Position numbers and translations under genes: made by a program. The notes under the pieces were generated by a model, which was given only the letters and a program-made list of their open reading frames with translations, made no database searches and had not been told where the DNA came from. From positions 5,148-69,147 of the forward strand of contig JAKQKX010000065.1 in the NCBI GenBank assembly GCA_029560465.1: a stretch of 64,000 nucleotides of DNA, in the 5' to 3' direction. This DNA comes from Candidatus Omnitrophota bacterium (GTDB taxonomy: Bacteria > Omnitrophota > Gorgyraeia > Zapsychrales > JANLHA01). Shown piece after piece: positions 5,114-63,292 of the stretch (positions within the stretch are counted from its first letter, which is position 1; each line of letters begins with the position of its first letter).

Positions 5114-5158
5114 CAGTCGTCTAGAATTTGATAACGGCCCCGCACAACCGGGGCGGTA

Positions 5159-5734: not shown

Positions 5735-5738
5735 GATT

Positions 5739-6897: not shown

Positions 6898-6898
6898 C

Positions 6899-9234: not shown

Positions 9235-9290
9235 AATAAGTCCTCTATTCCAATGGCTTAACTTCCGACCCCACAAACCCGCGCCATGCG

Positions 9291-10148: not shown

Positions 10149-10151
10149 GTT

Positions 10152-20230: not shown

Positions 20231-20262
20231 GATCTCCCGGTCGCCTTATTATACCCATATCC

Positions 20263-20607: not shown

Positions 20608-20619
20608 TTTTTCAATTAT

Positions 20620-20973
20620 TTAACGGCATCCCATGCCGGAATTTTCACAAAACTTTTTCAACTCTTTAAAAACGCCCGATAAAACCGTGAACAATCCGGT
20701 CAGCTCCGCCTGATTGATATTCCCGGATTTAACTATAACATTCATGGTGCGGGCGACAGACGACAGGTCCGTGATGCGCATGTTGTCGTAATCGCCTTTC
20801 AAACGATGCGACAGCTTCTGGACCGTGTCCCAATCTCCCCCGTTCATCGCCTTTTCAAGATCCACGATATCGCCGGTCGTCTGAGCGACAGCCTTATTTA
20901 AAATCCTCAGATAAATATCCCGCCCGATTTTAAGTTCTTCACAATTTTTATCCACATTGATCGCTAATGCCAT
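20620..20973 (-). CDS. Stand-alone Hpt (histidine phosphotransfer) protein, paralogue of the neighbour
   Basis: 117 aa with the HxxKG motif (HRLKGDYDNM). It shares the KIxxDIYLRIxK motif with the 20263..20607 protein. Confidence 0.6.
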   Translation of the reverse strand: MALAINVDKNCEELKIGRDIYLRILNKAVAQTTGDIVDLEKAMNGGDWDTVQKLSHRLKGDYDNMRITDLSSVARTMNVIVKSGNINQAELTGLFTVLSGVFKELKKFCENSGMGCR

Positions 20974-20998
20974 AAGCCCCCTCCAGACGGCACAGTAT

Positions 20999-21595
20999 TC
21001 ATTTCGTTTTCAGCCGGGGCACCGCACCCATCGTCATGTCCATCACCAACCGTCTAACATTGTCTATTTCAAAAACAACTTCAACCATGTCAAATTCATT
21101 ATAACAGAAATCCACCCCGGCAAAGGCGGAATTACGGTAATTTATAAAATGTGACATTTCAAGCTCAATATAGCCGGCGATCGAAATCTCGGATTTGAAC
21201 CGGCCGGATATAATGTTGCAAAGCGTACCGCAGGAATCCTGCATGGCGGTGTCACTCTCATCGTCAATCGGCGGATACTTTAAGAGCTTCATCATTTTGG
21301 AAATATAATCCTGCTGGACATAAATGATCAGGGCTCCCAGCGTCTTTTTTTGAGCCATATCTTTTTCGCTGGCATAGAAATTGACGGCGGAGACATACGT
21401 CGGTTCATTATCATATTTCTCCATCCCGTCAGCGCGCATTTTCCCTTCAAACTCAATGATCTTCCTCCGGGTCTTGGACGGTTCTTTGGAAAAATGCACG
21501 TCCCCCCGTTCGTTGAACAGAGCCACTGTCCCCTGCTCCAGGAGGTCGGCGAATTTATCCAATTCTTTATTTTTCTTACCCAGGAAAAACAACAA
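20999..21595 (-). CDS. Hypothetical protein in phosphorelay island, possible degenerate CheX/CheC-like phosphatase fold
   Basis: 198 aa with no confident family assignment. DSCGTLCNIISGRF resembles the xxxNIxxG core of CheC/CheX motifs but lacks the catalytic Glu. Confidence 0.35.
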   Translation of the reverse strand: MLFFLGKKNKELDKFADLLEQGTVALFNERGDVHFSKEPSKTRRKIIEFEGKMRADGMEKYDNEPTYVSAVNFYASEKDMAQKKTLGALIIYVQQDYISKMMKLLKYPPIDDESDTAMQDSCGTLCNIISGRFKSEISIAGYIELEMSHFINYRNSAFAGVDFCYNEFDMVEVVFEIDNVRRLVMDMTMGAVPRLKTK

Positions 21596-21612
21596 CCACG
21601 TCCTTTCCAGAA

Positions 21613-22023
21613 TTAATTAGACGATTTCAACTGCACAAACGGATAAATAACATCCAGCAATGATTCCGGTGTGTACGGCTTCACAACATACCCGACAAGA
21701 TTAGGATTAACCGCCCAAGCCTTTTTCTTGTTCTCATCCGTCCCGGAAGCGGTGACCATGATGATCGCTTTGTTGGCCACCTGCGGGACTTTCACCACCG
21801 CCTCCATAAATTCCATCCCCGACATCCGGGGCATCTGCCAGTCCAGGAGGATAAGCCCCACTTCCTTGTAATGGGTCCCCAGGATTTCAATCGCCTCCTC
21901 CCCTGTCCTGGCCTGCAGAAAACCATTCTGGACTCCAGCCCCTTTGAGGACCTCAATCAACAACTCCCTCTCCAGGTCAGAATCATCCACCACTAATATT
22001 TTGCCATGATTTAATTCTTCCAC
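21613..22023 (-). CDS. Single-domain response regulator (CheY-like receiver)
   Basis: 136 aa with receiver motifs (ILVVDDSDLE...ILLDWQMP...VKP). Confidence 0.8.
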   Translation of the reverse strand: MEELNHGKILVVDDSDLERELLIEVLKGAGVQNGFLQARTGEEAIEILGTHYKEVGLILLDWQMPRMSGMEFMEAVVKVPQVANKAIIMVTASGTDENKKKAWAVNPNLVGYVVKPYTPESLLDVIYPFVQLKSSN

Positions 22024-22056
22024 AAGGGTCGTCCTTTGGTTAAATAATATCCCTCA

Positions 22057-24342
22057 TCACATTTTTGTGTTACGAATAATTTTCTCCTTCAATTCATCCA
22101 CACCAAACGGCTTGGGAAGATAATCCGTCATGCCGGCTTCCAGGCACCGGTCCTTCTCGTCTTCCAGTTCCGCCGCCGTAAGCGCTATGATCGGCAAATT
22201 CTTTTTTAACTCATTCCGGATAATCCTCGTTGCTTCGACCCCGCCCATCACAGGCATTTGCAAGTCCATAAAACAGATGCCGTAATCATTCTTCCGGAGG
22301 AACTCTATCGCTTCCTGGCCGTTCGCCGCGTAATCACAGGTGCAGCCAAGTGTTTCAAAATGAACTTTCAGCAATTCCATATTGGGAATACTGTCCTCCG
22401 CGACCAGAACTCTCACTCCGGAGCAGGAAATTTTCTGGATCATCTCATCCGATAAAACGCGCGCGTAATCGGTCTTCTCACCCAGGACGCGCTGCAACAC
22501 ATCGCACAGCTCGGCCGAGATAATGGGTTTCGGCAAAAAAATGTCAAACCCGGCCTGGTTGAATTCAGAAGACGTCTCCACTTTAACATCCGACGACACG
22601 CCAATCAGCTTGATATTTTTATAATGTTCCTGCTGTTTCAGTTTATAGGCCAACATATACGCTTGTTTTTCCGGGAGAAGCAAATCAATAAAAATCAAGG
22701 CTGGTAAACTCTGCTGGCCTTTCTCCCTGGACAAGAGCAATTCGGAGGCCTGCTTGGCCGTCTGGCAGACCGCCAGGACGTTCAACCGGGCGGCCTCGAA
22801 CTGCGGGAGATACTGACGCAAAGATGTTTCGTGCATATCCACGATCAAAACTTCCGCCCCGGCGTTCTTTTGGAGGACCACCACATCTTCTTTGGGAGGG
22901 TGCTCCGTGGATTCATCAAAACAAATCGTAAAAATAAAACGGCTGCCTTCCCCCAGTTTCGATTCCAGCCATATCGTCCCCCCCATTGTTTCCACAAAAG
23001 TCTTACACAAGGCCAAACCTAACCCGGAGCCGCCATAAATGCGCGTTGTCGCATCATTGGCCTGCGTGAACGTTTCGAAAACAGCGTCCTGACGGTCTTC
23101 AGGGATCCCGATCCCGGTATCGCGCACGAGAAATTTAAGCGTCCGGCCCGGCTGCGTAAACCCATTCTGTCCGACCAGGCTGACCTCCAACCCGATCTCG
23201 CCATGTTCAGTGAATTTGATCGCGTTATCGATCAAATTGATAAAAATCTGTTTCAGCCGGGTCGGGTCTCCCATGAGAAACCGCGGGACGTCCAGCGCGA
23301 TATTGAAATACAGGTTAATAGGCTTGCTTGTCAAACGGGTACGGATAATCTTAAAAACTTCTTCAACGACATAATCAAGGTTAAAAGGGATCTTCTCCAA
23401 TTTGAGTTTCCCGGACTCAACTTTGGAGAAATCCAGGATGTCGTTGACAATCTCCAACAGCATCCGTCCGCTGACAATAATCGTGTTCAAATGCTCGTTC
23501 TGTTTGCTGTTAAGCCCGCTTTCTTTCAGGAGGTCGGTAAACCCCAAAATCGCATTGATCAGCGTCCGGATCTCATGAGACATGTTCGCCAAATATTCAC
23601 TTTTAGCCCGGGCTTCTTCCTGAGCCTGCTGCGTCAGCTTGATCGCCAGTTCACGCTCCTTGATAAGTTCCCTCTGGCGTTCATGCAACTTACTCTGGGC
23701 CACTTTCAGTTCACGGCCGGTTTCCTCATAATCCTGCAACAGCTTCGAAAGAACCCCGACCTCACAATCAACCCGGCCCTGGGCATGTTCGAGTTGTTGT
23801 TTGAACAAAGTGCAGGCTGTCATGTCCGGCTCGAAATTAATCTTGGGTATATTGCGGACAATCGGCTTCACCGGGCGGGCGGACGAGCTGCTTTTTCGGA
23901 TGGTTTCGTCAACAGCGGCGATAATGCTTGTCACATCGAGATATTCACTCTTCAACTCCCCGCCATTAACGATCTGTTCATCCAAAAGTTCCAGCAATTT
24001 CTGCAGGGCCTCAATGGCCCGCGTGATCAGCAGGATCATATCATTGTCAAGCTGGAGAAGATTCTTGCGGAACTTATCTAATAATGTTTCCGAGGAGGCG
24101 GTGAGCGAGAAGATATCGTGCAGATCTAAAAAATCGGCAAGTCCTTTAATGGTGTGGAATGTTTTAAAAACATCTTCAACCGCTTCCCGATCCGAAGGGA
24201 CAGTTTCCAAAATTAACAATGCGTTCCTGGCAGCAATGAGGTGCCGCTGGGCTTCACGGGAAAAATCCGTGAGCATTTCCGTCCCTTCCGACAGGTCCAG
24301 TTGAGGAACCTGGGGGAGGAACTCTTTTCTCTCAGGAGTCAT
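22057..24342 (-). CDS. Hybrid sensor histidine kinase: N-terminal Hpt - coiled coil - HisKA - HATPase_c - degenerate REC - REC
   Basis: 761 aa. N-terminal Hpt motif FHTIKGLADF. HisKA H-box MSHEIRTLINAILGF. ATPase boxes NLIDNAIKFT, DTGIGIP and GGSGLGLALCK. Two C-terminal receiver-like segments, the last being canonical (VLVAEDSIPN...FMDLQMP). Confidence 0.85.
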   Translation of the reverse strand: MTPERKEFLPQVPQLDLSEGTEMLTDFSREAQRHLIAARNALLILETVPSDREAVEDVFKTFHTIKGLADFLDLHDIFSLTASSETLLDKFRKNLLQLDNDMILLITRAIEALQKLLELLDEQIVNGGELKSEYLDVTSIIAAVDETIRKSSSSARPVKPIVRNIPKINFEPDMTACTLFKQQLEHAQGRVDCEVGVLSKLLQDYEETGRELKVAQSKLHERQRELIKERELAIKLTQQAQEEARAKSEYLANMSHEIRTLINAILGFTDLLKESGLNSKQNEHLNTIIVSGRMLLEIVNDILDFSKVESGKLKLEKIPFNLDYVVEEVFKIIRTRLTSKPINLYFNIALDVPRFLMGDPTRLKQIFINLIDNAIKFTEHGEIGLEVSLVGQNGFTQPGRTLKFLVRDTGIGIPEDRQDAVFETFTQANDATTRIYGGSGLGLALCKTFVETMGGTIWLESKLGEGSRFIFTICFDESTEHPPKEDVVVLQKNAGAEVLIVDMHETSLRQYLPQFEAARLNVLAVCQTAKQASELLLSREKGQQSLPALIFIDLLLPEKQAYMLAYKLKQQEHYKNIKLIGVSSDVKVETSSEFNQAGFDIFLPKPIISAELCDVLQRVLGEKTDYARVLSDEMIQKISCSGVRVLVAEDSIPNMELLKVHFETLGCTCDYAANGQEAIEFLRKNDYGICFMDLQMPVMGGVEATRIIRNELKKNLPIIALTAAELEDEKDRCLEAGMTDYLPKPFGVDELKEKIIRNTKM

Positions 24343-24434
24343 GTCAACCCCACCCGATAAAATATTAATAAATAAAACTCACAATAAATATATCATCAAC
24401 TCCTCGCAAAAAAAAGCATTGATCATAATATTTA

Positions 24435-25508
24435 CTAATATGAATTCACGCATCGGTTTCGTATATCTTCAATGAGGGGCAGAATCTCCAGGAAGCGGTC
24501 CACGATAATAGGAGAAAAATGGGTTTCTTTCATGTGCCGGATCTCTTCAACCGCCGCGTCAACCGGCCACGCTTGCTTATATGGCCGGTCCGAGGTTAAC
24601 GCATCAAAGACATCACAAATACTGCAAATCTGCCCCACGACCGGGATTTCATCGCCCCGAAGCTGTTTGGGATACCCTGTCCCGTCCCATTTTTCATGAT
24701 GCGTGATGCAGATGATCTGCGCCATTTTCATAACCGGAGAACTGCTGCCGGCAAGGAGCTTCGCGCCGATCACGGTGTGAGTCTTCATAATTTCATATTC
24801 TTCCTGTGTCAAACGGCCCGGTTTTAACAAGACGGCGTCGGGGATACCCAGCTTGCCGATATCGTGGAGCGGGCTGGCATGCAGCAAAAGGTCGCACTCC
24901 GGCAGGCTCATTCCCATGGCAACCCCGAATTTCTGGCAATACTGGCTCATCCGGATAATATGCAACCCCGTATCACTGTCGCGGAATTCCGCGGCTTGGG
25001 CGAGCCGCCGGATAATGTCCAGCTGAGTTTCCCTCAGCTCCTTCGTCCGCTCCTGCACTTTGCTTTCCAGGATCTTATTCTGGTTCTTGACTTCCATATG
25101 CAAAGACCGCATCTCGATCATGTTGTGAATGCGAAAAATAATCTCCATATTTTCATAAGGCTTATTAAGAAAATCCGTTGCGCCGGACTGCAGTGCCCGC
25201 AAGCGGACATCGGAACTCTTCTCGGAAGACAGCGCGAGGATGGGGAGATAATGCTCCCTCCGGAATTCTGCCAATTGCTCCATGATCTGAAATCCATCAA
25301 GGTGCGGCATAAAAATATCCAAGACAATGATCTCCGGCTGAAAATCCCGAACCAAACCGAGGACCTTAAGCGAATCGTTGGCGTATTCCACGTTCTTAAA
25401 TCCTTCTTCCGCGAGTATCTTTTTCAAATAAAGTCCGTGGAGTTTCTGGTCATCCACAATCAGAATCCTGGAATTATCCATTTGTTCTTTTGTATACATA
25501 AGAGCCAT
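24435..25508 (-). CDS. Response regulator with HD-GYP c-di-GMP phosphodiesterase output domain
   Basis: 357 aa with an N-terminal receiver (ILIVDDQKLH...IVLDIFMP) and an HD-GYP domain (HHEKWDGTGYP). Confidence 0.85.
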   Translation of the reverse strand: MALMYTKEQMDNSRILIVDDQKLHGLYLKKILAEEGFKNVEYANDSLKVLGLVRDFQPEIIVLDIFMPHLDGFQIMEQLAEFRREHYLPILALSSEKSSDVRLRALQSGATDFLNKPYENMEIIFRIHNMIEMRSLHMEVKNQNKILESKVQERTKELRETQLDIIRRLAQAAEFRDSDTGLHIIRMSQYCQKFGVAMGMSLPECDLLLHASPLHDIGKLGIPDAVLLKPGRLTQEEYEIMKTHTVIGAKLLAGSSSPVMKMAQIICITHHEKWDGTGYPKQLRGDEIPVVGQICSICDVFDALTSDRPYKQAWPVDAAVEEIRHMKETHFSPIIVDRFLEILPLIEDIRNRCVNSY

Positions 25509-39783: not shown

Positions 39784-40506
39784 ATGTTCAGAGAGCTTTT
39801 CGGCGAAGATCCGCAAGCCATTAAACCATTCTGCCTCCTGGCGCCTTTTTACAGCGCCGCGATCCTGGACATATTACGAATACCCAGGCTGAAACAAGGC
39901 ACGCTCTACGCCTGCGGGCACAATCATGATTTGACTTTCATTCATACCCGCATCGGGCCGACCTTCCTGGGAGATGCGGTCCTTCACCTTGAAAAAACAC
40001 CCTGCCAGAATCTTACCCTGCTCGGAGCCTGCGGCGCCACTTCCATGACACCAGGGATGGAATTGGGAACCCCGATCTTCCCGTCAGGCAGTTACGCCAT
40101 GGACTCTTTCTCCGCGGTCTTGTCCAAAACTAAAACCAACTTCCCTTTTTATAAAAGTGATGCCGCGCTGACCGAAGACTTATTTCACCATAACGGCGGC
40201 GCCGGGCAACGCGTCTCCGCGGCTGCCAGCTTCAGCTCTTTTTATTTGGAAACGCAATATCGCGATCTTTTCCTCAAGAAAGGGATCGAAGTTGTCGACA
40301 TGGAAACAGCCGCTTTGTTCCAGGCCGCGGCGCTCACCGGGAAGAAAGCGGGAGCCGTGCTTTACGTTACGGATATTCTTGACATATCCCACCCCTTCCG
40401 CCACTGGTCAAGGGCAGAAAAACGCCTCTTGCAAGAGGCATCCCGGCAGGCGGCATCGATCATCCTGCGGACAGCCCGTCAAAAAAACAAATCGGCGAGC
40501 AATTAA
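39784..40506 (+). CDS. PNP_UDP_1 family nucleoside phosphorylase/nucleosidase (MTA/SAH nucleosidase or futalosine hydrolase-like)
   Basis: 240 aa with a C-terminal VVDMETAALFQAAAL segment characteristic of the phosphorylase-I family. The specific subfamily is undetermined. Confidence 0.45.
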   Translation: MFRELFGEDPQAIKPFCLLAPFYSAAILDILRIPRLKQGTLYACGHNHDLTFIHTRIGPTFLGDAVLHLEKTPCQNLTLLGACGATSMTPGMELGTPIFPSGSYAMDSFSAVLSKTKTNFPFYKSDAALTEDLFHHNGGAGQRVSAAASFSSFYLETQYRDLFLKKGIEVVDMETAALFQAAALTGKKAGAVLYVTDILDISHPFRHWSRAEKRLLQEASRQAASIILRTARQKNKSASN

Positions 40507-40614
40507 CCAGTTAAACACCCCAAAAATCTTCCAAGGAAACGTTGTCGTCCAGGAAACAACTATTCCAACGGCTAGGCAAACCGGCTTTATATATGTTATA
40601 CTTCAATTGACAAT

Positions 40615-40725
40615 TAGAAAGGTAAACTATTCGAAAGAATAGGGCGCAAAGCCGTGAGCCTAAATCTTCCTGCAAAAAGGCGGGAATGATATGGTTGTCT
40701 GGCTACCGTGACCATCCGGTTTCGT
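40615..40725 (+). ncRNA. Probable c-di-GMP-I (GEMM) riboswitch aptamer
   Basis: UAAACUAUUCGAAAGAAUAGGGCGCAAAGCCGUGAGCCUAAA aligns almost position-for-position with the Vibrio Vc2 aptamer core (AAACCAUUCGAAAGAGUGGGACGCAAAGCC...GCCUAAA). The P2 stem CUAUUC/GAAUAG carries a GAAA tetraloop, and a second stem UUCCUGC/GCGGGAA follows. Confidence 0.55.
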
Positions 40726-40734
40726 GAAAATATG

Positions 40735-40769
40735 AGCCCTTCGAATCTTTCGAAGGGCTTTTTCTTTTT
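40735..40769 (+). terminator. Intrinsic terminator/expression platform downstream of the riboswitch
   Basis: Perfect hairpin GCCCTTCGAA-TCTTT-CGAAGGGC followed by TTTTTCTTTTT. An RBS (AAGGAG) and the ATG of the next gene follow within 15 nt. Confidence 0.6.
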
Positions 40770-40782
40770 AAAGGAGCATTTT

Positions 40783-41046
40783 ATGAATAAATTTTTATTG
40801 ATATCCCTCATCGCAATTCTTCTTGCGCCCTTCTGTCCAAAATCCTCTATGGCGGCGCCGACTTCTTCCCAGGAGTTTAAAATTGTTGTGTATATTCCGG
40901 CGATCCCTGGGATCAATGCCCCCCTGGACAAACTGACTGAAGATGTGCGCGTCGACGGGATGACAGGGACATCATTTTACGTCACGACAGAAGAACTCCA
41001 GGAAGATGGCCAAAAGGTCTTCCGGGAAACGATTGTGGCCAGGTAG
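40783..41046 (+). CDS. Small secreted protein (87 aa) under riboswitch control
   Basis: A strong RBS (AAGGAGcattttATG) precedes signal peptide MNKFLLISLIAILLAPFCPKSSMA. There is no recognisable family. The track ORF starts upstream at 40708 inside the terminator. Confidence 0.5.
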   Translation: MNKFLLISLIAILLAPFCPKSSMAAPTSSQEFKIVVYIPAIPGINAPLDKLTEDVRVDGMTGTSFYVTTEELQEDGQKVFRETIVAR

Positions 41047-41054
41047 GAAGCTGG

Positions 41055-43811
41055 CTATTTAGCCTTTTCTTTGAGGGGGATATTGAACACGTACGTGATC
41101 CCTTCCGCGACTTTAATCTCATTCTTAATTTTAACTAACGGGATACAATTCTTAGGAAGAGAATTGACGTCCAGTTCCAGGACGTGTATTCCGGGCTTAA
41201 TATTGTCAAAACTATATGTCCCTTCAAAATCACTAAATGTTACCTCTTTCCCATCCAAAATAACCTTGGCTTTGGAGACAAACTTGTCATCCTTATCCAG
41301 GACATTGTTTTGATTAGTATCAATGAACACAACGCCGTAAACACCCGACTGGCTGGTCAGGCCGAAGTTGTTCACGTTCACTTTCCTATGCTCAACAATG
41401 ACATCCTTCATGAATCCGTTGGAATTTACGTAACCGGTCGGCAAAGTCGAAATATCCAACGCAACCCGCACCTTCCGGGCTTTAACCTTCGCGAAATATC
41501 GCCCCTGGCTGTTAGTTTTAACGACCTTATCCCCGACTTTGATCCCAATACCGGGGATGCCCTCTTCTCCCAAATCAAGAACAGTATTTCCGTTTATGTC
41601 GTTAAATACACGCCCTTGAAAAATTCCGGTGGGATTCCAGCGGAAAAAGGTATCCCAATTGGTCCGCAACCCTAACCGCACGTCAGCGTCATTAAAAGGC
41701 GAATTGTCAGGGTTTTCCGTCCAAACGCTGCGGATATTGCCATCTAAATATATTTCAAAATCACGATTCGGGCGGTAAACGAACCCTAAAGATCCACGGA
41801 TAGAGTCCTCCCCGGAAAGGAAACTGAACTGCTCTGTTGTCTTCTCTTCATCCCGGTATCGTAAGCTCATCCTTCCGGACAAGGGTTCGAACATCCTCCA
41901 GGTATAATCAACCCCCGTAGTCAGCACATGCGGATATGTCCAATCATCGGCCTGGATATTATGGACAAATGAATATTCATAATTCACGTAAAAACTCATA
42001 TCTGAAAAAAGCGGCATCCGCAGCCCCGCGGATAAAGAATTACGGTCAAACTCAGACGCCGGAGATTTATCATAACGGTTTTGCTGGAACGTCTGCCCGA
42101 GAGAAAACGTCATCGCCCGTCCCCCAAAAAACGGAAAACGCTGATTAAACATATTCATAATACTTCTACTTTGATGCGGGGAAATAAGCTGCGGGGTGTA
42201 GGAAACAAAAGCCCCTGTCGTCCATGAGGACGCGGACGATAGGGGATAGTTAAAAGAGCCGTTCCAGTCAACATTCAGGTCATCCTCTTTGTCGGGATTA
42301 AACAAAAAGCGGTCGCGGTAAATATCAAGATTCGAATTAAGACGGGTTTTCTCTCCCCGGAACGCATAACGTATATTGCCACCCACTTCCCCTCGGTCCG
42401 AAGGACGCCCGACCAGAGTCACATAGTCTTTATCAATATCGCGAAAATTTATGTTTAAAGTATAATTTTTCTTTTTAATCTCCGTCCTAATGACGTCACT
42501 ATAAACGTCTTCATCGGAGGCAATCTCCCCGTATATTTTGAAATCATTGAATTTGTGTTCAGTCTCCGCCGAAAACACTTTATCTTTAAGAAAATTATCC
42601 CGGGAGTCTCCATACCCCCGCCCGACATTAATCGTGTAATTATGGTCATCGTCAGGGAACAACGTGACACTCGCTCCTTCAATATGGGTTTTCTTAACAG
42701 ACAGGATCCCAGGACTGATAAACAAAAACTGGGCGCGGTCCTGCCCTTGAAAGACCGTATAACGAAGATTATGATGCGCCGCGTAACTTTCTAACTTGAC
42801 TCCCCGGAAACTCCGGCCCGGGATTGACAGGTCAGAGAAGAAGACCTCGGTGTCAAAGCCCCGAATTGTAAAATCCCGGAAAGGACCCACGAGGCCATTG
42901 GTCAGCCCTACCCGCTCGCCTATCCGCTCCGTGGATTCGGCATATTTATAAAAATTCATAGAAGCATCAAAATCGCCATAGGGCGTTTTCCCGTACATCC
43001 CAACCCACTGCGAAAAATTGAGGTTTGTCCGAACCATGTCCGGGATACGGTCCCCGAGATAAATACTGCTCCAATTATTAGAATACGCGATATTAAACGG
43101 CGGGGAATCTTCTTTCCCGGTCAATTCAAACTTTTCCACCTGCACGTTCTGCTGAATACGCGGGAGCTGGCCTTTAACGTTAAAAGTCCAGCGGCCCCGG
43201 TCGTCCCAGATGTGAAAAAAAGTATTCGCCCGGACTTTAGTCATAATACTGATACGATTTTGGTCCAACCGATCCACTTCCAGGATTCCTTCGTTGACCG
43301 CCAGGAACTGTTTAATATTCCGGCCCTGCAAAATATAAGTCTTATTCGTTTCGATTTCCAAGTCGGTATTAGGCTGCCTGGCCCACAGCGTGTCATCCAG
43401 GTTAAGGATTGCCGCATGTTTCGGTTTAAGAGCCTCTTCCTTGGCTTTCATCATGGCCGGCGATGCGGTAAACTGCTGCACGATGGCCGTCCGTTCCTCC
43501 TCCCTCTGTTGATCAGGGGTCACCACCTCTTTGGGAAAAACATCCGGTTGCACAACAGCCATGCGGCCTTCCTTAAAACGTTTAATGAGTTTAATGTATT
43601 TGAAAGGAGTTTCTTTGGATGGGGCAATCGCCTGAGCCTGTTCAAAATACAAAATAGCTTTATCATAAAAGCCCTTATCAAAAGCCCGGACGCCCAAACT
43701 CATATAATAATGATAATCAGATTCTGAAGCAGCGGAGCTTGCTCCAGGACAGGAAAGGATAAATAATGCAGCGATAAGAATTCCAAGGAAAAATTTGCTC
43801 ATACCTCGCAA
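41055..43811 (-). CDS. Large outer-membrane protein: N-terminal TPR region, central beta-barrel-like region, C-terminal carboxypeptidase-regulatory-like (Ig-like) domains; usher-like candidate
   Basis: 918 aa with signal peptide, TPR-like helices (YYMSLGVRAFDKGFYDKAILYFEQAQAIAP) and a long Tyr/Asn/Asp-rich beta-strand region. Two C-terminal CarbopepD_reg-like modules are present (VFNDINGNTVLDLGEEGIPGIGIKV...; VYGVVFIDTNQNNVLDKDDKFVSKAKVILDGKEV). Confidence 0.45.
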   Translation of the reverse strand: MRGMSKFFLGILIAALFILSCPGASSAASESDYHYYMSLGVRAFDKGFYDKAILYFEQAQAIAPSKETPFKYIKLIKRFKEGRMAVVQPDVFPKEVVTPDQQREEERTAIVQQFTASPAMMKAKEEALKPKHAAILNLDDTLWARQPNTDLEIETNKTYILQGRNIKQFLAVNEGILEVDRLDQNRISIMTKVRANTFFHIWDDRGRWTFNVKGQLPRIQQNVQVEKFELTGKEDSPPFNIAYSNNWSSIYLGDRIPDMVRTNLNFSQWVGMYGKTPYGDFDASMNFYKYAESTERIGERVGLTNGLVGPFRDFTIRGFDTEVFFSDLSIPGRSFRGVKLESYAAHHNLRYTVFQGQDRAQFLFISPGILSVKKTHIEGASVTLFPDDDHNYTINVGRGYGDSRDNFLKDKVFSAETEHKFNDFKIYGEIASDEDVYSDVIRTEIKKKNYTLNINFRDIDKDYVTLVGRPSDRGEVGGNIRYAFRGEKTRLNSNLDIYRDRFLFNPDKEDDLNVDWNGSFNYPLSSASSWTTGAFVSYTPQLISPHQSRSIMNMFNQRFPFFGGRAMTFSLGQTFQQNRYDKSPASEFDRNSLSAGLRMPLFSDMSFYVNYEYSFVHNIQADDWTYPHVLTTGVDYTWRMFEPLSGRMSLRYRDEEKTTEQFSFLSGEDSIRGSLGFVYRPNRDFEIYLDGNIRSVWTENPDNSPFNDADVRLGLRTNWDTFFRWNPTGIFQGRVFNDINGNTVLDLGEEGIPGIGIKVGDKVVKTNSQGRYFAKVKARKVRVALDISTLPTGYVNSNGFMKDVIVEHRKVNVNNFGLTSQSGVYGVVFIDTNQNNVLDKDDKFVSKAKVILDGKEVTFSDFEGTYSFDNIKPGIHVLELDVNSLPKNCIPLVKIKNEIKVAEGITYVFNIPLKEKAK

Positions 43812-43988
43812 CGTTTCTGCGGTTCCACGGCATCTTCTGAAAAATCCGAACTATAACCCAGCCTCTTGTCCCAAGAATATTTCCCATGGTATCTTTGAAT
43901 CAAATTCAGCATGAGGCCGAAACACAGAAAAATTTTCACCACCTTTATTATAAATATTATCCGGCAAAACAAAAGCGGGATCGGGAAA

Positions 43989-44885
43989 TTAATCCCGTGT
44001 GGCAACCAAATTTATATCCCCTTCCGGATTCTTATTAAAATCAACTTCGATGACCACACTGTCCCCGCGCTCCAAATCAAATGTCAAGACAACCGTATGC
44101 TTCCCCGGAGGGAGTGTTTCAGGAATAACAAATTGAAAATCCGCTTTCGCCTGCGGCGGGACATACAGCTTATTAACTTCTCCCCGGTCTTCGACCAAGC
44201 CATCCTCACTGAGGAAAAAGAAGACTCCTTTGGGGAAAAGCACGACATCCCCCTGGTTATGAAAATTCCCCTGCAGCACTCCTCCATTAAGAGCCAGATC
44301 TTCAACCTTCGCGGATTTGTTCGCATCCGTTGACTCGAGAAAAAACAAAGTGCCAATCCTGGTCACAAAACTCATCCCGATTCTTGACTTAGCCACATCC
44401 GGGCTCATCTCAAAAAAAAGCACGCCATCGCAGCCTGTTTTAAATGATTCCGGGACTTTAACCGAATACTTTACCTCTTGCTTCCCGAACGGCGGAAGGG
44501 TTATTGTATTGGGGCTAAACGTGATTTTGTCCGCGCAGGAATAATCAGAGGTGCCGCTCGGCATAAATTCTTTGTTCCCTTTATCAAACGGTTGGCGGTA
44601 AATAAAATCCTGCCAATACAATTTTACGGCTAACGGCTTATTGGTGCTGTTTGTGACTTCCAGGGAATCCACGATTCCCGAGCCCGGAGCCATTTCATGT
44701 TTAATGACGCTCTTCTGAATAATCAGTTGCGCAGAAACTCTGCCCGGCATACCGAGTAAACCGACAAAGAAAAAAGGGATTATATGGATAAATCGATGCA
44801 TAAGTTTAATAACTTTTGCGGGCAGGTTACTCCTGCCCGCAAAAGTTTCAATTTTTAAAAACAAATTACGGTCCAGGAGCAGCAA
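43989..44885 (-). CDS. Periplasmic protein with PapD-like pilus-chaperone N-terminal pattern (two Ig-like domains)
   Basis: The likely start is the internal MHRFIHIIPFFFVGLLGMPGRVSA (near 44801). The mature N-terminus AQLIIQKSVIKHEMAPGSGIVDSLEVTNSTNKPLAVKLYW follows the chaperone pattern A-x-[LIV]-x-[LIV]...[LIV]x[LIV]xNxxxxP[LIV][LIV]xxW. Single-base sequence reading around 44820 was ambiguous, so the coordinates follow the ORF track. Confidence 0.35.
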   Translation of the reverse strand: MLLLDRNLFLKIETFAGRSNLPAKVIKLMHRFIHIIPFFFVGLLGMPGRVSAQLIIQKSVIKHEMAPGSGIVDSLEVTNSTNKPLAVKLYWQDFIYRQPFDKGNKEFMPSGTSDYSCADKITFSPNTITLPPFGKQEVKYSVKVPESFKTGCDGVLFFEMSPDVAKSRIGMSFVTRIGTLFFLESTDANKSAKVEDLALNGGVLQGNFHNQGDVVLFPKGVFFFLSEDGLVEDRGEVNKLYVPPQAKADFQFVIPETLPPGKHTVVLTFDLERGDSVVIEVDFNKNPEGDINLVATRD

Positions 44886-45549
44886 CAGTCATGGTTAACG
44901 TGCCGGTGTAATTACCAGGCGTGTCTCCCGGATTAAACGGGATAGCCCCAGCAGGTTCCGATTCAAGCGGATTCCCGGTTGAAAGCCCGACATAAAAACG
45001 CAAATACTGCCCGTTGGCTAAAATATCCGCAGCATAAACAGTTTGTGCGATGTTCGCCAATATCGCCCGGGTTCCTATTTGAGTTTCAGTGTCATCGGTG
45101 TAAACATCCGGAGTCCCATTGTTGTCATTCGCAACAGGCGTTCCAATGGCATGAACTCCAAGGCCACTTCCATCATTCGGTGAGCCGTTGGGGTTGTCGT
45201 CATCCGTATAAGTAAGAGTAACATTAAGAGCACCCGCCCCATACGGCCACACATCAACAGCATAGTAAACATCGCCCAGGTAAGCATATTGAGGTGGATC
45301 CCCAGGATCCGCGACATTAGTGAGGATCGGCTCAAACTGCAAAGTTGTGGACGGCCAATCTGTGAATACCCCTCCGTCAACCTGGTAGACTACGAACGTT
45401 GCCGTGCTGGCGTTGTCGATGTCAACGGTAATCGGGAACGTCGCCGAGCTGGTCTGCGCCGAGGCGCCGGACACGAAGCACAACAAGGCCCCCACCATTA
45501 ACACCGTTAAGAAAGTTAGTTTTCGCATTTTCTTCCTTCCTCCTTTCAA
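44866..45549 (-). CDS. Secreted beta-rich protein (fibre/pilin-like subunit candidate)
   Basis: Signal peptide MRKLTFLTVLMVGALLCFVSGASA, Thr/Asp/Gly-rich with a Pro-rich C-terminus. No family assigned. Confidence 0.4.
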   Translation of the reverse strand: MKGGRKKMRKLTFLTVLMVGALLCFVSGASAQTSSATFPITVDIDNASTATFVVYQVDGGVFTDWPSTTLQFEPILTNVADPGDPPQYAYLGDVYYAVDVWPYGAGALNVTLTYTDDDNPNGSPNDGSGLGVHAIGTPVANDNNGTPDVYTDDTETQIGTRAILANIAQTVYAADILANGQYLRFYVGLSTGNPLESEPAGAIPFNPGDTPGNYTGTLTMTVAAPGP

Positions 45550-45557
45550 AAATTAAA

Positions 45558-46937
45558 CTAAATGGCACCTAATGAATACATCACTTGCACTTTATAATTA
45601 CCAGCCTGCATATTCGGATAAGGCTTCATACGGTAACTCACAGTCAAAACAGCTGACGACCCCAGGTCGTCTGAAACGTATAAAGGAACCTCACCCTTGC
45701 TTACTGGAGAAAAATCGTCGTGTTGAACGCTTCCCTGCCCATCAACAAGTTCTTCCTTGAATGTAAAGAATTCGCTGGAAAATTCCTCCCCCTCTTCATT
45801 AGTCAGCGGTGCGTGTAAAATTTGATTCACGACATACGGTTTGCCCAAGTTTGTCTTGACCGCAACTTTAATCTCCTTAATTTGCGGCGGGTCGGTTTCC
45901 AGGGTGCCGTGAAAACTCATACCCTCGGTGGGATACTCCACGTTCAGTTCAAAAACCGGGTCCACCACAAGCTCCAAATGAACATCAAACACGTGTTCAC
46001 CCCGCCTGCTTTCAACAATATATCTGGCAGCGCCTTCATAACGGCCCGCCTGGTAATTTTGCACCAAATCCTGATTCACGCTATAGTTAACTCCGATTGT
46101 ATCGTGGCTGGCGGTCCCTTCATAAATAAGCGTTTGTTCCGGCCGCAAATCACCCGAGGACTCCTGAAGGACCTCCCCCCGTTCCCCCCCAAAAACCAGA
46201 TATTGAATCAAACCCAATTCAACCGACTGCATCAACTCGTCTCTGGGGAAGGCGTCGATCTTTTGATAAATCTTAATGGGGTTGCCTTCAACGTTGTTCG
46301 TAAAAGAGATCGAAAAATTCGCCTCTGAAACAGGCCTCTGATCTGTTGTTATCCTGATGCGGTCCTGACCGGCATTCCCAGACGTTTCAATCTTTAAATC
46401 GCCGCCAGCTTCCAAAGTGACAGTCAGGACTCTTTCATCAATTGCCCCCTCACCTATCTGACGGACAGTATAAAACATCTGTCCCTGAAAAGATCCTGAA
46501 ACGCTCAACGCATCCGGGTCGACTTTATAAAAGACCACAAAAGAATCCGCGGTCCCGGAAGGGTCAGAAGAATAAATCTGCTGATCGGAAAGCCCCAAAG
46601 GCTCAACATCCTGAATATAGAGCGTGCCACGGGAATTGGAACCAAGCAACCCCCCGCTTAAGATAGCGGAGCGATACAGGGTTTCCCCTTTTTCATTAAC
46701 CAGTGGGCCTATCCTTTGAAAGACCTGGTATTGTTGCCCTTCATCAGAATTCACACGGATACGGACTTCCTTATCTTCTGAGGAGAAAGTATCTACACGC
46801 CCAAAACGGATACTCCCGCCCCCTTCAGCCGGAATCACAGACAGCGTCACCGCGGCAAAAGATAAATTAGGGATAATTTCTATTAAAAATAATATTAATG
46901 CTATAGTTAAATATTTTTTTAAGTTTACATAATTCAT
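45558..46937 (-). CDS. Secreted multi-domain beta-rich protein (tip/adhesin-like candidate)
   Basis: 459 aa with a signal peptide and repeated Ig-like strand patterns. It is the first gene after a 170 bp AT-rich promoter tract. Confidence 0.4.
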   Translation of the reverse strand: MNYVNLKKYLTIALILFLIEIIPNLSFAAVTLSVIPAEGGGSIRFGRVDTFSSEDKEVRIRVNSDEGQQYQVFQRIGPLVNEKGETLYRSAILSGGLLGSNSRGTLYIQDVEPLGLSDQQIYSSDPSGTADSFVVFYKVDPDALSVSGSFQGQMFYTVRQIGEGAIDERVLTVTLEAGGDLKIETSGNAGQDRIRITTDQRPVSEANFSISFTNNVEGNPIKIYQKIDAFPRDELMQSVELGLIQYLVFGGERGEVLQESSGDLRPEQTLIYEGTASHDTIGVNYSVNQDLVQNYQAGRYEGAARYIVESRRGEHVFDVHLELVVDPVFELNVEYPTEGMSFHGTLETDPPQIKEIKVAVKTNLGKPYVVNQILHAPLTNEEGEEFSSEFFTFKEELVDGQGSVQHDDFSPVSKGEVPLYVSDDLGSSAVLTVSYRMKPYPNMQAGNYKVQVMYSLGAI

Positions 46938-51370: not shown

Positions 51371-51754
51371 TCAGAACCCGTCTTCTAAATTCTGTTCGAT
51401 GGCTGCGATTAACTCTTCGACGGATGAGGGTTTGGCTAGAAAAACGTGCCCCCCGACCAGGCCACAACCAGACGCCGTTTCCTCTTTTGTAATTGTGGCT
51501 GTCAGGAAAATAACAGGAATATCCCTGGAAAGAGGATGGTTCCGCAGCTGAAAGGCCACGTCCGGGCCTTCCCGGTACGGCATAATGACATCAAGAAGGA
51601 TGATATCCGGCTGGGTCCGTATAACCGTATCCATGGCGAATTCAGAATCGTTCTCGATAAAAACACGGTAACGCCCGGTCACCTCAAGATTGAGCTTGAC
51701 CATTTCTGTAAAACCACGCTCATCGTCAATAATCAGGATTTTGGCTTTTCTCAT
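51371..51754 (-). CDS. Single-domain response regulator
   Basis: 127 aa with receiver motifs (ILIIDDERGF...ILLDVIMP). Confidence 0.8.
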   Translation of the reverse strand: MRKAKILIIDDERGFTEMVKLNLEVTGRYRVFIENDSEFAMDTVIRTQPDIILLDVIMPYREGPDVAFQLRNHPLSRDIPVIFLTATITKEETASGCGLVGGHVFLAKPSSVEELIAAIEQNLEDGF

Positions 51755-51767
51755 ATCCCCGGCACCC

Positions 51768-52961
51768 TTATCTTTTAAAAATCAAGCGCGCCCGCACGCC
51801 CCCGTCTGCCATATTCGTGATGCTGATCAGCCCTTGGTGGTTATGCATGATCGTGCGGGCGATGGACAGGCCGAGCCCGACGCCCCCGGCAGCACGTTTT
51901 GTAGTAAAAAAAGGGTCGAATATCTTCGACAAATATTCCGCGCTGATCCCTTCCCCGGAATCAACGATATCGACAATCACCACGGGATCGCCGATGTTAA
52001 TCGAGCATGACGGCGGCCTGGCAAATCCGTCGTCATCGCTGGCAAAAAATTTCACCTGTGTGGAGATTTTCAAAGCCCCCCCGCGCGGCATGGCTTGGAT
52101 CGCGTTTAACGTCAGGTCCAGGATGACTTGTTCGATCCGGTTGCGGTCAATGTATATTTCGGGGACCGAGGGAGCGTATTTCTTCTGAATATCAATAGAA
52201 AATTTCTCGCACTGGTGGTGAATCAATGTCAGGGCATGGTCAATAACCGAATGAATATCCTCCGCCCGTTTCTGTAGCGACGAGAGGCTGGCAAAATCCA
52301 GAAGATCTTTAATAATCCTATTGGCCTTGACCGCCGCCTCCTGGATGGCATTCAATGTAACGTGGATCTGCTCGTCATCCGTGTCTTCAAACTTAGTGTA
52401 AAGGAATTCAATCCCGTATAAAATAGTGGCCAGGGGATTTTTAACTTCATGCGCGACCCCGCTGGCCAGGCCACCGATGACATTGATTTTTTCGGCCTGA
52501 ATCAGTTGAGCCTGCGTCTCCCGCAGATGGTTATAAGCCGCCTTCAGATCCTGCTCCGCCTTTTTGCGTTCAACCGCATAATAAAGCGCTTTGCTTAATC
52601 CGTAAGGCAGATATTTCCCTTTAATCAGATAATCCTGCGCGCCGCTGGTGATCGCCTTAAGCCCCATACTATCTTCATAGGCGCCTGTGTTAATAACGAT
52701 CGGCAAATGAGGGAACTGGTGATGGATCCGCCCCAGCGTATCAAGCCCCCGGCTATCCTGAAGATTCAAATCCAGGAGGACAACATCATAAGTATTATTT
52801 TCCAACCGTCGGCAAGCGTCCGCGAGGCAACTGCAGCAATCGAGGTCAAACGACCCGTAAGCCGTTTTCTCCAACATCCCTTTCAACATCCGGCTGTCCA
52901 CCTGATTGTTTTCAACAATCAGGACAAATAGCTTCCTTTTCATCTCAGGGCTTGTGGGCAT
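51768..52961 (-). CDS. Hybrid response regulator/histidine kinase (REC-HisKA-HATPase_c)
   Basis: 397 aa with an N-terminal receiver (VLIVENNQVDSRML...VLLDLNLQD) and H-box VAHEVKNPLATI. The ATPase boxes DLTLNAIQAM and GGVGLGLSIARTIM are present. Confidence 0.8.
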   Translation of the reverse strand: MPTSPEMKRKLFVLIVENNQVDSRMLKGMLEKTAYGSFDLDCCSCLADACRRLENNTYDVVLLDLNLQDSRGLDTLGRIHHQFPHLPIVINTGAYEDSMGLKAITSGAQDYLIKGKYLPYGLSKALYYAVERKKAEQDLKAAYNHLRETQAQLIQAEKINVIGGLASGVAHEVKNPLATILYGIEFLYTKFEDTDDEQIHVTLNAIQEAAVKANRIIKDLLDFASLSSLQKRAEDIHSVIDHALTLIHHQCEKFSIDIQKKYAPSVPEIYIDRNRIEQVILDLTLNAIQAMPRGGALKISTQVKFFASDDDGFARPPSCSINIGDPVVIVDIVDSGEGISAEYLSKIFDPFFTTKRAAGGVGLGLSIARTIMHNHQGLISITNMADGGVRARLIFKR

Positions 52962-58183: not shown

Positions 58184-59032
58184 TCACTCCTTCCAGGATT
58201 TAAGCCCGTTTAAGAAATCATTCAATTGCTGGACAAACGTACGGTCAGAAAACCAGCCGATGTACGCGTTCGCCCCGGACAAAAGACAGGCTTCATGCCC
58301 GGCATCGATCATCTCCGTCCTCTGCCGGATATCTTCGCTGCCAAGGTTTTCGACCCGGTAATAACTGAACACAACCACCGGGGTCCTTTGGAAGTCCGGC
58401 AGAAGGCGCAGGGCCTTGATATATTCCGCCGGCGCACCCAGTCCCGGCAAAAGGACATCCATGACGATCAGATGCGGTTGAAAAACCAGCGCCCGAGTTA
58501 ATATATCTTGTCCTTTCCGAACCACCACCACTTCGCAGGATTCCTGCCTAAGGAGCCCGGCCATGAGCTCGGCATTATCACGCTCATGCCCTCCCAGCAA
58601 AACTCTCCGGCGGTAAAGGCAGGACTGGCGTTGCTTCGCGATCAGATCCAGGGCGTTCCCCGGGCTGCGGGTGCGGGAGAGCGCACTGGATAAAAGCGAT
58701 AGCAAAAAATATTCATCAATCGGTTTATAAATAATATGATCAACGCCCAAGACTTTAAAGCCCTCTTCCCTCTGACGGCGGCTCAACAACAGGACGATTG
58801 GAACCACAGCGAGTTTTTTTATGCCCTTGATGCGTTTGCACAACTCAAAGGCATTTCCCCCCGACCATTCTTCATCAATAAGAAAGAGATCAGCCGGTTG
58901 CCCGCTGATATACTCAAACCCGGCTTCGCCGGAAGGCGCGAGCAGTAATCGGTAGCCGGCCTGTTCCAACAAAAGGCCCAGCCGCTGAAGACAAGCCTGG
59001 TCATGGCTGGCCGCAAGAATACAAGGTATCAT
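58184..59032 (-). CDS. Tandem-receiver protein (two REC-like domains, first degenerate)
   Basis: 282 aa. REC1 has SH instead of the DD pair but retains the LFLIDEEW phospho-acceptor context and a lysine. REC2 carries LIVMDVLLPG. Confidence 0.55.
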   Translation of the reverse strand: MIPCILAASHDQACLQRLGLLLEQAGYRLLLAPSGEAGFEYISGQPADLFLIDEEWSGGNAFELCKRIKGIKKLAVVPIVLLLSRRQREEGFKVLGVDHIIYKPIDEYFLLSLLSSALSRTRSPGNALDLIAKQRQSCLYRRRVLLGGHERDNAELMAGLLRQESCEVVVVRKGQDILTRALVFQPHLIVMDVLLPGLGAPAEYIKALRLLPDFQRTPVVVFSYYRVENLGSEDIRQRTEMIDAGHEACLLSGANAYIGWFSDRTFVQQLNDFLNGLKSWKE

Positions 59033-59111
59033 GGAAATCCCTCCTCAAGGGGGCCGCCGCCACAATTTCATCTACGGACCACAAAGAGCGCGGTTACTCA
59101 AGACAGCTCAC

Positions 59112-59142
59112 AACAAAAAAAGTCCTGGCTACAAGCCAGGAC
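59112..59142 (-). terminator. Intrinsic terminator downstream of the 97 aa membrane protein gene
   Basis: Perfect 9 bp stem GTCCTGGCT-ACAA-GCCAGGAC, followed on the minus strand by TTTTTTT. Confidence 0.5.
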
Positions 59143-59177
59143 TTCAATGGTCGTCATTCCCGTTTTAAAAAAAGCAG

Positions 59178-59471
59178 TTAATTCTTCCGGGTGTTTTGTT
59201 CGATGTGGACCTGGCACAGAGCCTGCTGGGCCTGCATCTTAAGCTCAAATGCCCGGTTTTGTCCGGAACCATAGCCCATCACACCGCCGATCATCGCGCC
59301 GATGGCCACAATAAGCGCGTCGTAGCTTCCCAACAAAGCGTCGCTCACCCCGCCGAATATAATGATCCCGAAAAAGATGCCGATAAAGAAATGCCGCATC
59401 GTTGTGGCCCTGGCTTGCGAATATAGCCGCTTGGCATATGCCTTGACCAGTTCAAGATCGTATTCAACCAT
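59178..59471 (-). CDS. Small Gly-rich membrane protein
   Basis: 97 aa with two glycine-zipper-like transmembrane helices (FFIGIFFGIIIFGGV; AIGAMIGGVMGYGSG). Confidence 0.4.
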   Translation of the reverse strand: MVEYDLELVKAYAKRLYSQARATTMRHFFIGIFFGIIIFGGVSDALLGSYDALIVAIGAMIGGVMGYGSGQNRAFELKMQAQQALCQVHIEQNTRKN

Positions 59472-59572
59472 ATTAAGCCTCCATTGTATTGGTTAGTAGT
59501 CAAAAAACATAATCTATAAAACAGTTATATACGCAAAGATATAGGATGTCAACGGGTAAAGAGACTTTTTCA

Positions 59573-59890
59573 TCATTCTTCCATTAAAATATTTTTAGTC
59601 CTCTGCACATACGCGCACGCCTCCCGGCCCGGCCAAGAGTCATGCAAAATTTCCCGTATCGGGAGGCAGCGGAAAAGCCGGCCCCCCACGGTTTTTCTGA
59701 TTCCAAAACGCTCTTCGTATATACGGCAAAAAAACCGCCCCGACGATTCGCTTTGAAGATGCTCGCAGGGATCCCCGTCAAAGGCGCCACAGCAGGCCCC
59801 GCACCGAAGACAGAGGGATTCCCATCGACGTTGCTGTTCCTTTTGAAAACAGATGTAATCCCGCTCCCCGCCATCATGGTCTGGCATCAT
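59573..59890 (-). CDS. YkgJ-family cysteine-cluster protein (CxxCxxCC putative Fe-S/Zn chelating domain)
   Basis: 105 aa with CLRCGACCG matching the CxxCGxCC signature, plus additional C-terminal Cys residues. Confidence 0.55.
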   Translation of the reverse strand: MMPDHDGGERDYICFQKEQQRRWESLCLRCGACCGAFDGDPCEHLQSESSGRFFCRIYEERFGIRKTVGGRLFRCLPIREILHDSWPGREACAYVQRTKNILMEE

Positions 59891-59923
59891 AAAACTCGCG
59901 GTTCCCTCCCCTCCCGGGATACG

Positions 59924-62441: not shown

Positions 62442-62455
62442 GGCGTATCACAATC

Positions 62456-62827: not shown

Positions 62828-62891
62828 ATTTCGGCTCCTTATTGTAGAAGTGCCCCCTGGGATGCCCCACCCTCAAAATGCAATGCAAAAC

Positions 62892-63275: not shown

Positions 63276-63292
63276 AAAAACCCCTCCCCCCG

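Follow-up and report, generated by a model that had tools for sequence, protein, structure and literature searches.

A predicted c-di-GMP-I riboswitch ahead of a small secreted protein gene convergent with an usher-like gene cluster in Candidatus Omnitrophota

The 64-kb stretch of DNA from a Candidatus Omnitrophota bacterium that we analysed (called the window throughout) carries on its forward strand a leader with the features of a class I cyclic di-GMP (c-di-GMP) riboswitch, followed by a gene for a secreted protein of 87 amino acids (aa). From 5' to 3' the unit comprises a sigma-70-like promoter detected by consensus scan (40573-40602, +), consisting of a -35-like TAGGCA (40573-40578), an 18-nt spacer and an extended -10 element, TGtTATACT (40594-40602); a c-di-GMP-I (GEMM-I) aptamer (40611-40710, +); a short hairpin that we call H1 (40707-40724, +); an intrinsic terminator (40734-40769, +); a ribosome-binding site, AAGGAG (40771-40776, +), which is kept in the leader alignment; and, 6 nt further, the ATG (40783) of the 87-aa open reading frame (ORF; 40783-41046, +). 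The gene is monocistronic and runs tail-to-tail towards a reverse-strand gene for a 918-aa protein, with 8 nt between the two stop codons. The order of promoter, aptamer, terminator, ribosome-binding site and ORF is common to all orthologous loci, and the TGyTATACTT element upstream of the aptamer is kept in all lineages inspected. Judged from the position of the -10 element, transcription would start at about 40609-40610, at the 5' edge of the aptamer. An earlier note on this DNA had described a GEMM-like leader with a terminator, followed by AAGGAG and the ATG of an 87-aa ORF with a signal peptide, and the ribosome-binding site and start codon lie at the positions given above.

To establish the identity of the RNA, the whole window was scanned with Rfam 15 at gathering thresholds. 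The scan gave a match to RF01051 (c-di-GMP-I) at 40611-40710 (+) that scored 63.8 bits against a gathering score of 35 and covered model positions 1-87 of 87, with an E value of 3.7e-10 for the 64-kb window and of 3.8e-12 in a local scan; it was the sole Rfam match above gathering threshold in the window. In the local scan RF01051 was also the best-scoring family and the clan match retained, and a permissive local scan of 40450-41100 gave no match to c-di-GMP-II (RF01786) at E<=10, its other additions being noise. The resemblance to GEMM-I on which the earlier note had relied is thus far beyond chance: the cmsearch with RF01051 that it proposed was passed clearly, and all the sequence elements that it quoted were found. 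The aptamer core UAAACUAUUCGAAAGAAUAGGGCGCAAAGCCGUGAGCCUAAA, as read from the sequence, occupies 40623-40664 (+). It includes the P2 hairpin CUAUUC-GAAA-GAAUAG (40627-40642, +) with its GAAA tetraloop at 40633-40636, and runs into P3 (40650-40704, +), which carries a distal stem, UUCCUGC/GCGGGAA (40667-40673/40680-40686, +), and the segments CCUAAA (40659-40664) and UAUGG (40690-40694), which we take to be the two halves of an 11-nt tetraloop receptor. The combination of a GNRA-capped P2 with a P3 bearing a tetraloop receptor, which marks members of the class, is therefore present.

The bases equivalent to ligand contacts of the Vibrio cholerae Vc2 riboswitch lie in the matching model columns, with G20 at G40621, A47 (a ligand contact in the Vc2 structure) at A40648 and C92 at C40706; the G20 and C92 equivalents are those whose lack would have spoken against a GEMM-I assignment according to the earlier note. 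Of the two guanines of the ligand, one is recognised by pairing with G20 and the other by a Watson-Crick pair with C92; in the GEMM-Ib riboswitches that sense 3',3'-cyclic GMP-AMP (cGAMP) an A replaces G20 (PMC6140456). The window has G at this position (40621) rather than the A of GEMM-Ib, and reads GCAAAG where the variant family RF03167 has G at the A47 equivalent (consensus GCGAA). Given this G20/A47/C92 signature, the sequence points to c-di-GMP rather than cGAMP as the ligand, and we regard the window RNA as a genuine class I c-di-GMP aptamer. We are highly confident that it belongs to a functional c-di-GMP-I riboswitch acting in cis on the 87-aa gene, ligand binding being predicted from the conserved contacts.

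The structure was further supported by covariation in a 7-sequence alignment that extended from the aptamer to the terminator and used a structure derived from the window; the set is small and several of its members are close relatives, so that its results are supportive and not strong alone. In this alignment 96.1% of the paired cells could pair, as compared with 39-52% when the partners were slid by 1-3 columns, and five pairs were changed on both sides, a number reached by none of 500 shuffles. A helix between GACAAUUA (40609-40616) and UGGUUGUC (40692-40699) that dominated unconstrained folds was rejected as a conserved element: leaders read by eye showed non-compensatory weakening of this helix in two lineages (L006 and L009; L numbers are our labels for loci) and its absence from a third (L013). 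Right after the extended -10 element the window carries a box, TTGACAAT(TAG), at 40608-40618, which also occurs in L001, L002, L007, L016, L017 and L019. The TTGACAAT box is found in most lineages, including clades with differing aptamers, where it lies about 17 nt upstream of the aptamer, and in some lineages it sits within an AATTGaCAATT palindrome; it might serve as an operator or represent an initial transcribed sequence that is conserved.

Looking for the helix P1, we found that a canonical 5'-3' P1 was not detectable by duplex folding: 5' leader and 3' tail paired at best with -1.4 kcal/mol, less favourably than shuffled sequences did on average (-3.1 kcal/mol). P1 is outside the consensus structure of RF01051, and a natural P1 may have as few as 2-3 bp, as the RF03167 consensus shows. 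At the base of the window aptamer lies H1 (CG-U-GACC-AUCC-GGUU-U-CG), which begins at the equivalents of C93 and G94, such that C40707 and G40708, directly after the C92 equivalent, pair with the CG at 40723-40724. H1 was predicted independently in 8 of the 9 lineages fetched first and again in L020, the exception being L009, in which the minimum-energy fold takes a different register. The inner stem of H1 changes in a compensatory manner across lineages (GACC/GGUU, AACC/GGUU, AACCA/UGGUU, AACAA/UUGUU, AAGU/ACUU with an inserted hairpin, and AACUAUU/AAUAGUU), and the hairpin was 100% paired in the formal covariation count. We infer from the sequences that H1 substitutes for P1 and stacks beneath the binding pocket.

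To determine how general the association of aptamer and gene is, the loci of close and distant members of the protein family were fetched and scanned with Rfam. RF01051 matched upstream of the gene at 36-72 bits in L001, L002-L005, L006, L007, L008, L009, L011, L013, L014 and L020, RF03167 (c-di-GMP-I-GGC, of the same clan) matched at 62-67 bits in L016, L017, L018, L019 and L021, and L015 gave a sub-threshold RF01051 match (29.3 bits, E 0.025). A GEMM-I-type aptamer thus precedes the homologous gene in 15 of 15 lineages, 14 above threshold and one just below, while the identity of the proteins falls to about 22-25%; the leader that the earlier note had suggested seeking before homologues of the 87-aa protein was accordingly found in all lineages examined. 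The L016-L019 and L021 leaders read GCAAA at the RF03167 variant position and keep G20 and C92. With A retained there, they were rejected as true GGC variants, and they match RF03167 through their short P3, not through an altered binding site. Degenerate-pattern scans of genome and metagenome contigs gave 6 loci only, two of which (L010 and L012), being 29-aa matches without a riboswitch, were set aside as probably not belonging to the family. The RF01051 aptamer of L013 (3813-3906, 63.9 bits) has C at the G20 equivalent (UAAACGUAAAC), an unusual binding-site residue, and a divergent REC-PAS-GGDEF gene adjoins this riboswitch upstream.

In the short-P3 clade the riboswitch stands before a bicistron, in which the second gene is the family member and the first encodes a cytoplasmic protein of 77-97 aa (L016 3711-4004, L017 3766-3999, L018 3707-3988, L019 3766-3999 and L021 2744-3004). 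The first proteins, of 86 aa in L021, share the motif QRVVTFLNRxEVDFLDKLGKDALFSTGxKLSRAKLIAWLVD, and those of L016-L019 gave no match to the family profile; by eye, the sequence looks like that of a ribbon-helix-helix DNA-binding protein.

The 87-aa protein itself has a signal peptide, a conserved SSQEFKIVVYIPAIPGINAP segment, an acidic variable linker and a C-terminal beta-hairpin ending TIVAR. Attempts to identify it failed in Pfam and NCBIfam and, by sequence profile as well as by Foldseek, in the PDB, none of which gave a match. The earlier note had called the product a novel small secreted protein of unknown family; it does fall outside the Pfam and NCBIfam families but is not an orphan, as its family counts at least 310 proteins. 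A first database search returned four clusters, each bearing the label Candidatus Omnitrophota; about twenty further small proteins of 81-97 aa came from a profile search over 1.84 billion representatives, and a profile search of a large collection gave at least 310 proteins at E<=0.001, of which the named ones are nearly all from Omnitrophota. A few contigs bear other bin labels (Planctomycetales, Smithella), in which we suspect binning error. Family members share the signal peptide, a core consisting of a near-invariant IPAIPG-(I/V)-N-x-P after alternating hydrophobic residues, a variable linker and a C-terminus ending T-(I/V)-V-x-(K/R). An AlphaFold2 model built from 81 sequences has a signal helix, a conserved N-terminal segment that is extended and lacks regular structure, disorder at residues 54-59 and a confident C-terminal beta-hairpin. 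Given that the predicted template-modelling score is only 0.27, despite a mean predicted local distance difference test score (pLDDT) of 77, the model indicates that the protein is not a globular fold.

The intrinsic terminator consists of a 12-bp stem, GAGCCCUUCGAA/UUCGAAGGGCUU (40734-40745/40749-40760), a 3-nt loop (UCU) and a U-tract that extends to 40769. Six of the 12 stem pairs are G-C, the hairpin is followed by UUUCUUUUU in the terminator scan, and its energy is -18.1 kcal/mol. The terminator with its T-run reported in the earlier note is therefore present, with a longer stem than the one described there, and it occurs with compensatory changes in every orthologous leader. It is likely that the 87-aa gene is controlled through this terminator. 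The hairpin is near-palindromic, and 40735-40759 is also scored as terminator-like on the reverse strand, with a poor T-run; if this form ends the transcript of the convergent usher-like gene, that mRNA would span the whole small ORF in antisense.

How ligand binding could be coupled to the terminator was examined by folding. The mechanism put forward in the earlier note, in which the UUCGAA arm of the terminator alternatively pairs with the P2 loop, was not supported: a 9-nt complement exists, yet the helix (-10.3 kcal/mol against a shuffle mean of -9.8 kcal/mol) was equalled or bettered by 35% of the shuffles, and, by eye, changes in P2 or in the terminator abolish the pairing in L013, L014, L015 and L020. 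The minimum-energy fold accommodates aptamer and terminator together. When the aptamer was enforced with the ligand-contact bases constrained and the terminator omitted, the terminator 5' arm had no alternative partner (-33.8 kcal/mol); in unconstrained folds (-38.9, -42.5 and -39.3 kcal/mol) this arm was sequestered by 5-8 kcal/mol, via aptamer strands or the H1 3' strand. The H1 3' strand and the terminator 5' arm can form an alternative hairpin that roughly equals H1 in stability in the window, exceeds it in L002 and L009 and is at least comparable to it in L001. As a single conserved antiterminator this hairpin was not accepted, since it is unevenly kept across lineages and gives partial support only. 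In the sister clade L016-L019 the 5' arm of the second terminator is complementary to aptamer strands (-19.0 kcal/mol in L019, reached by none of 200 shuffles; -14.9 kcal/mol in L018, reached by 2% of shuffles), which is the classical layout of ligand-promoted termination. The leaders of L016-L019 and L021 carry two tandem terminator-like hairpins with U-tracts after the aptamer, e.g. at 3630-3650 and 3659-3693 in L016.

Folding and the comparison with the sister clade favour an OFF switch, to which we give only slightly better than even chances. Binding of c-di-GMP would lock the aptamer together with the adjacent H1, which would stand in for P1, leaving the terminator 5' arm unpaired, so that the terminator would form and transcription would halt before the ribosome-binding site. 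In the ligand-free RNA, the aptamer strands and the H1 3' strand would transiently pair with the terminator 5' arm and allow more read-through into the ORF, and read-through polymerases would probably run on in antisense into the convergent usher-like gene because there is no terminator after the small ORF. Taken as a whole, a class I riboswitch with terminator control of the 87-aa gene and with OFF as its likeliest logic is in our judgement very likely the best explanation of the locus.

Several observations weigh against this explanation. The closest orthologous leaders are nearly identical to that of the window and thus add little independent evidence. Thermodynamically, the terminator prevails in both states that were modelled (-52.1 and -54.2 kcal/mol); given that it dominates in all models, any switching would have to be kinetic. 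No single antiterminator of the window beats shuffles: the best partner of the terminator 5' arm, formed by P2 and the P2-P3 junction, reaches -13.0 kcal/mol and is matched by 12% of them. The hairpin between the H1 3' strand and the terminator is weak in L006, absent in L014 and found in no fold of L020. Finally, the biological expectation is rather for an ON switch, as c-di-GMP usually induces surface structures.

Of the alternatives, an ON switch survives best, and we consider it a real if distinctly less likely possibility. In this case binding of c-di-GMP would permit read-through, and the secreted protein would be made at high c-di-GMP alongside surface or pilus functions. c-di-GMP commonly induces adhesins, pili and other surface structures, the neighbouring cluster is usher-like, and the very stable default terminator in every model would fit a default-off system that needs an activating signal. 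However, we found no structure that has any part of the terminator taken up by the ligand-bound aptamer or by H1; H1 stops 9 nt short of the terminator, the aptamer-enforced fold leaves it untouched, and the complementarity of terminator 5' arm and aptamer in the sister clade is a classical OFF arrangement. The chances that OFF and ON leave over fall to other modes of action or to no terminator control at all.

The second alternative concerns the convergent gene (41055-43811, -), which encodes a predicted outer-membrane protein of 918 aa with usher-like architecture. The tail-to-tail layout is found in all family loci with context, with stop codons 2-23 nt apart in 10 of 11 loci and a partner protein of roughly 1000 aa. 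Pfam matches of the 918-aa protein are to SdrD_B and weakly to TPR or CarboxypepD_reg, with T2SS-T3SS_pil_N in relatives. Its AlphaFold2 model (41 homologues) is confident, with a pLDDT of 84.9; a signal peptide and a short, helical, TPR-like region are followed by a small beta domain, a barrel of approximately 24-26 strands (residues 237-734) and, at the C-terminus, two beta-sandwich domains. In a Foldseek search of the PDB the top 12 matches were all FimD/PapC ushers, with E values from 1.8e-20 to 3e-10 and template-modelling scores of only 0.26-0.48; those that were full-length chains aligned over about 760-820 columns, and other barrels followed from about 1e-9. At the sequence level no usher family or PDB match was found. 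Because of the low template-modelling scores and the missing sequence match, we call the modelled protein usher-like rather than an usher.

Upstream of this gene, three further reverse-strand genes (43989-46937, -) encode proteins of about 270, 220 and 459 aa, all with signal peptides and none of a recognised family. The resulting four-gene cluster (41055-46937, -) is restricted to Omnitrophota, its gene order is kept in L002, L006, L013-L019 and L021, and its approximately 270-aa protein has weak Ig-like matches. PapD-type chaperones or pilins were sought in the cluster and not identified, as there were only weak fn3_5 and WxLIP_PGBD matches and nothing in the PDB. Set against the gene order of chaperone-usher operons, the succession of secreted proteins, an Ig-like periplasmic protein and an usher-like protein resembles such an operon, and the cluster may be a divergent chaperone-usher-type system.

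According to this second alternative the main output of the unit would be antisense, the riboswitch gating transcriptional interference or an antisense RNA on the usher-like operon and the small protein being a second output. Among riboswitch families, enrichment in antisense orientation is greatest for those that sense c-di-GMP (PMC9943018). The stop codons in the window are close to each other, as they are across the family, the tail-to-tail layout is kept throughout, and a simple scan showed no forward-strand terminator-like site from 40761 to 42515, the first strong one being at 44811-44847; transcripts that read through the small ORF would therefore be antisense to the usher-like gene until at least 42516. 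Against a mainly antisense role, the small ORF belongs to a clearly conserved protein family under selection, so that the sense output is real, and a simple terminator scan can miss terminators. We consider it unlikely that antisense is the main output. The site at 44811-44847 (+) is a strong 16-bp hairpin with a T-rich tail that lies between or within the reverse-strand cluster genes.

A more speculative synthesis, to which we assign a slightly lower probability still, joins the two outputs. The aptamer, lacking P1 and closed by its 3' hairpin, would at low c-di-GMP allow production of a minimal secreted beta-strand protein that acts on a divergent pilus machine of chaperone-usher-like type (e.g. 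as donor-strand cap or terminator), together with antisense transcription into the usher operon; at high c-di-GMP both would be off and pilus assembly would proceed. If true, an uncultivated nanobacterial phylum would have a switch for attachment to surfaces or hosts that is under riboswitch control.

Returning to the riboswitch that we favour, the ligand deserves a further word. It might be argued that the aptamer senses another cyclic dinucleotide, such as the 3',3'-cGAMP bound by GEMM-Ib, or some other ligand of the kind proposed for variant classes, given that the relatives L016-L019 and L021 score best with the variant model RF03167 and that L013 bears C at the G20 equivalent. This is very improbable for the window RNA, which has G at position 20 where cGAMP riboswitches have A (PMC6140456) and A, not G, where the RF03167 consensus deviates, and which scores best with RF01051; the RF03167-type relatives, too, retain G20, A47 and C92. 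That the resemblance is due to chance, or that the aptamer is decayed and non-functional, is barely conceivable in view of a score 29 bits over threshold, a leader DNA more conserved than the downstream signal-peptide coding DNA, the compensatory changes, and the presence of the aptamer in 15 lineages of a diverged gene family.

Elsewhere in the window, genes related to c-di-GMP signalling had also been predicted, and both of them hold up. The HD-GYP phosphodiesterase corresponds to a REC plus HD_5 protein (24438-25508, -) with the motifs HDIGK and HHEKWDGTGYP, and the possible PilZ protein (10765-11154, -) scores 28.8 bits with PF07238 (cutoff 22.5) and carries RKALR and DMSFLG; no GGDEF gene was found among the window ORFs scanned. 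Two-component signalling genes are dense on the reverse strand at 19829-25508, 51371-52961 and 58187-63658 (-) and include several stand-alone receiver domains, REC-HD-GYP and REC-histidine kinase proteins, a hybrid histidine kinase with an Hpt domain (22060-24342, -) and a CheX-like protein (21002-21595, -). An operon for an Rnf-type electron-transport complex (4043-10583, -) encodes RnfC, RnfD, FMN-binding, Rnf-Nqr and ferredoxin subunits; its stretch includes an RseC/MucC-like gene, and the PilZ gene directly adjoins it.

The RNA itself is an ordinary representative of its class, which has been known since 2008, and the window copy would be annotated by any pipeline that uses Rfam. What is added here is the strict link between the aptamer and a secreted protein family, the link between this family and the usher-like cluster, and the P1-replacing hairpin. 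We found no paper linking Omnitrophota with c-di-GMP riboswitches, and the words c-di-GMP and riboswitch are absent from the Omnitrophota genome papers PMC10066038 and bioRxiv 10.64898/2026.06.07.730766. The linkage offers a functional handle on this uncultivated phylum: it identifies the module as an output of c-di-GMP, which makes it a candidate for a role in surface attachment in these organisms, thought to be host-dependent. For structural biologists working on riboswitches, the conserved hairpin in place of P1 could be of interest as a minor structural variation.

Comparison with known systems places the locus as follows. The 918-aa neighbour shares with FimD/PapC ushers a predicted small N-terminal beta domain, a large barrel and two C-terminal beta-sandwiches, and differs from them in its extra TPR-like N-terminus, the missing sequence-level match and the lack of a recognisable PapD-type chaperone or pilin. 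Like the antisense c-di-GMP riboswitches (PMC9943018), the window unit points into the 3'-end of a convergent gene with no intervening terminator; unlike them it has a conserved protein-coding gene in between, and would act primarily in sense, with a hypothetical antisense effect. The GEMM-Ib 3',3'-cGAMP riboswitches of Geobacter (e.g. Gs1761; PMC6140456) resemble the window RNA in overall fold and fall into its Rfam family or clan, but carry A where the window has G40621. c-di-GMP-I-GGC (RF03167) is in the same clan, CL00126, and is the model with which the distant leaders L016-L019 and L021 score best, whereas its consensus reads GCGAA at the A47 equivalent and both the window and these leaders read GCAAA. 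Sudarsan and colleagues reportedly described in 2008 the c-di-GMP-I riboswitch Cd1 of Clostridioides difficile, which precedes the flagellar operon and is said to act by ligand-promoted termination (OFF). Cd1 serves a long flagellar operon, whereas the window unit serves a single 87-aa gene with an antiterminator that is not clearly defined and a direction deduced from folding and sister leaders; in both, a class I aptamer is followed by an intrinsic terminator, with OFF as the logic favoured here. The Vc2 riboswitch (Vibrio cholerae, RF01051; PDB 3IRW as cited in PMC6140456) differs from the window RNA in that its C93 and G94 are part of P1, while the window equivalents pair with the downstream CG in the absence of a detectable 5'-3' P1; the window RNA also has a longer P3 tip, an intrinsic-terminator platform and a host in the phylum Omnitrophota. 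The two share the core of the class, with a GAAA-capped P2 that docks, in the window as predicted, in a P3 receptor, a junction of the ACGCAAAGC type (GGCGCAAAGCC in the window), and the G20, A47 and C92 equivalents in the same columns.

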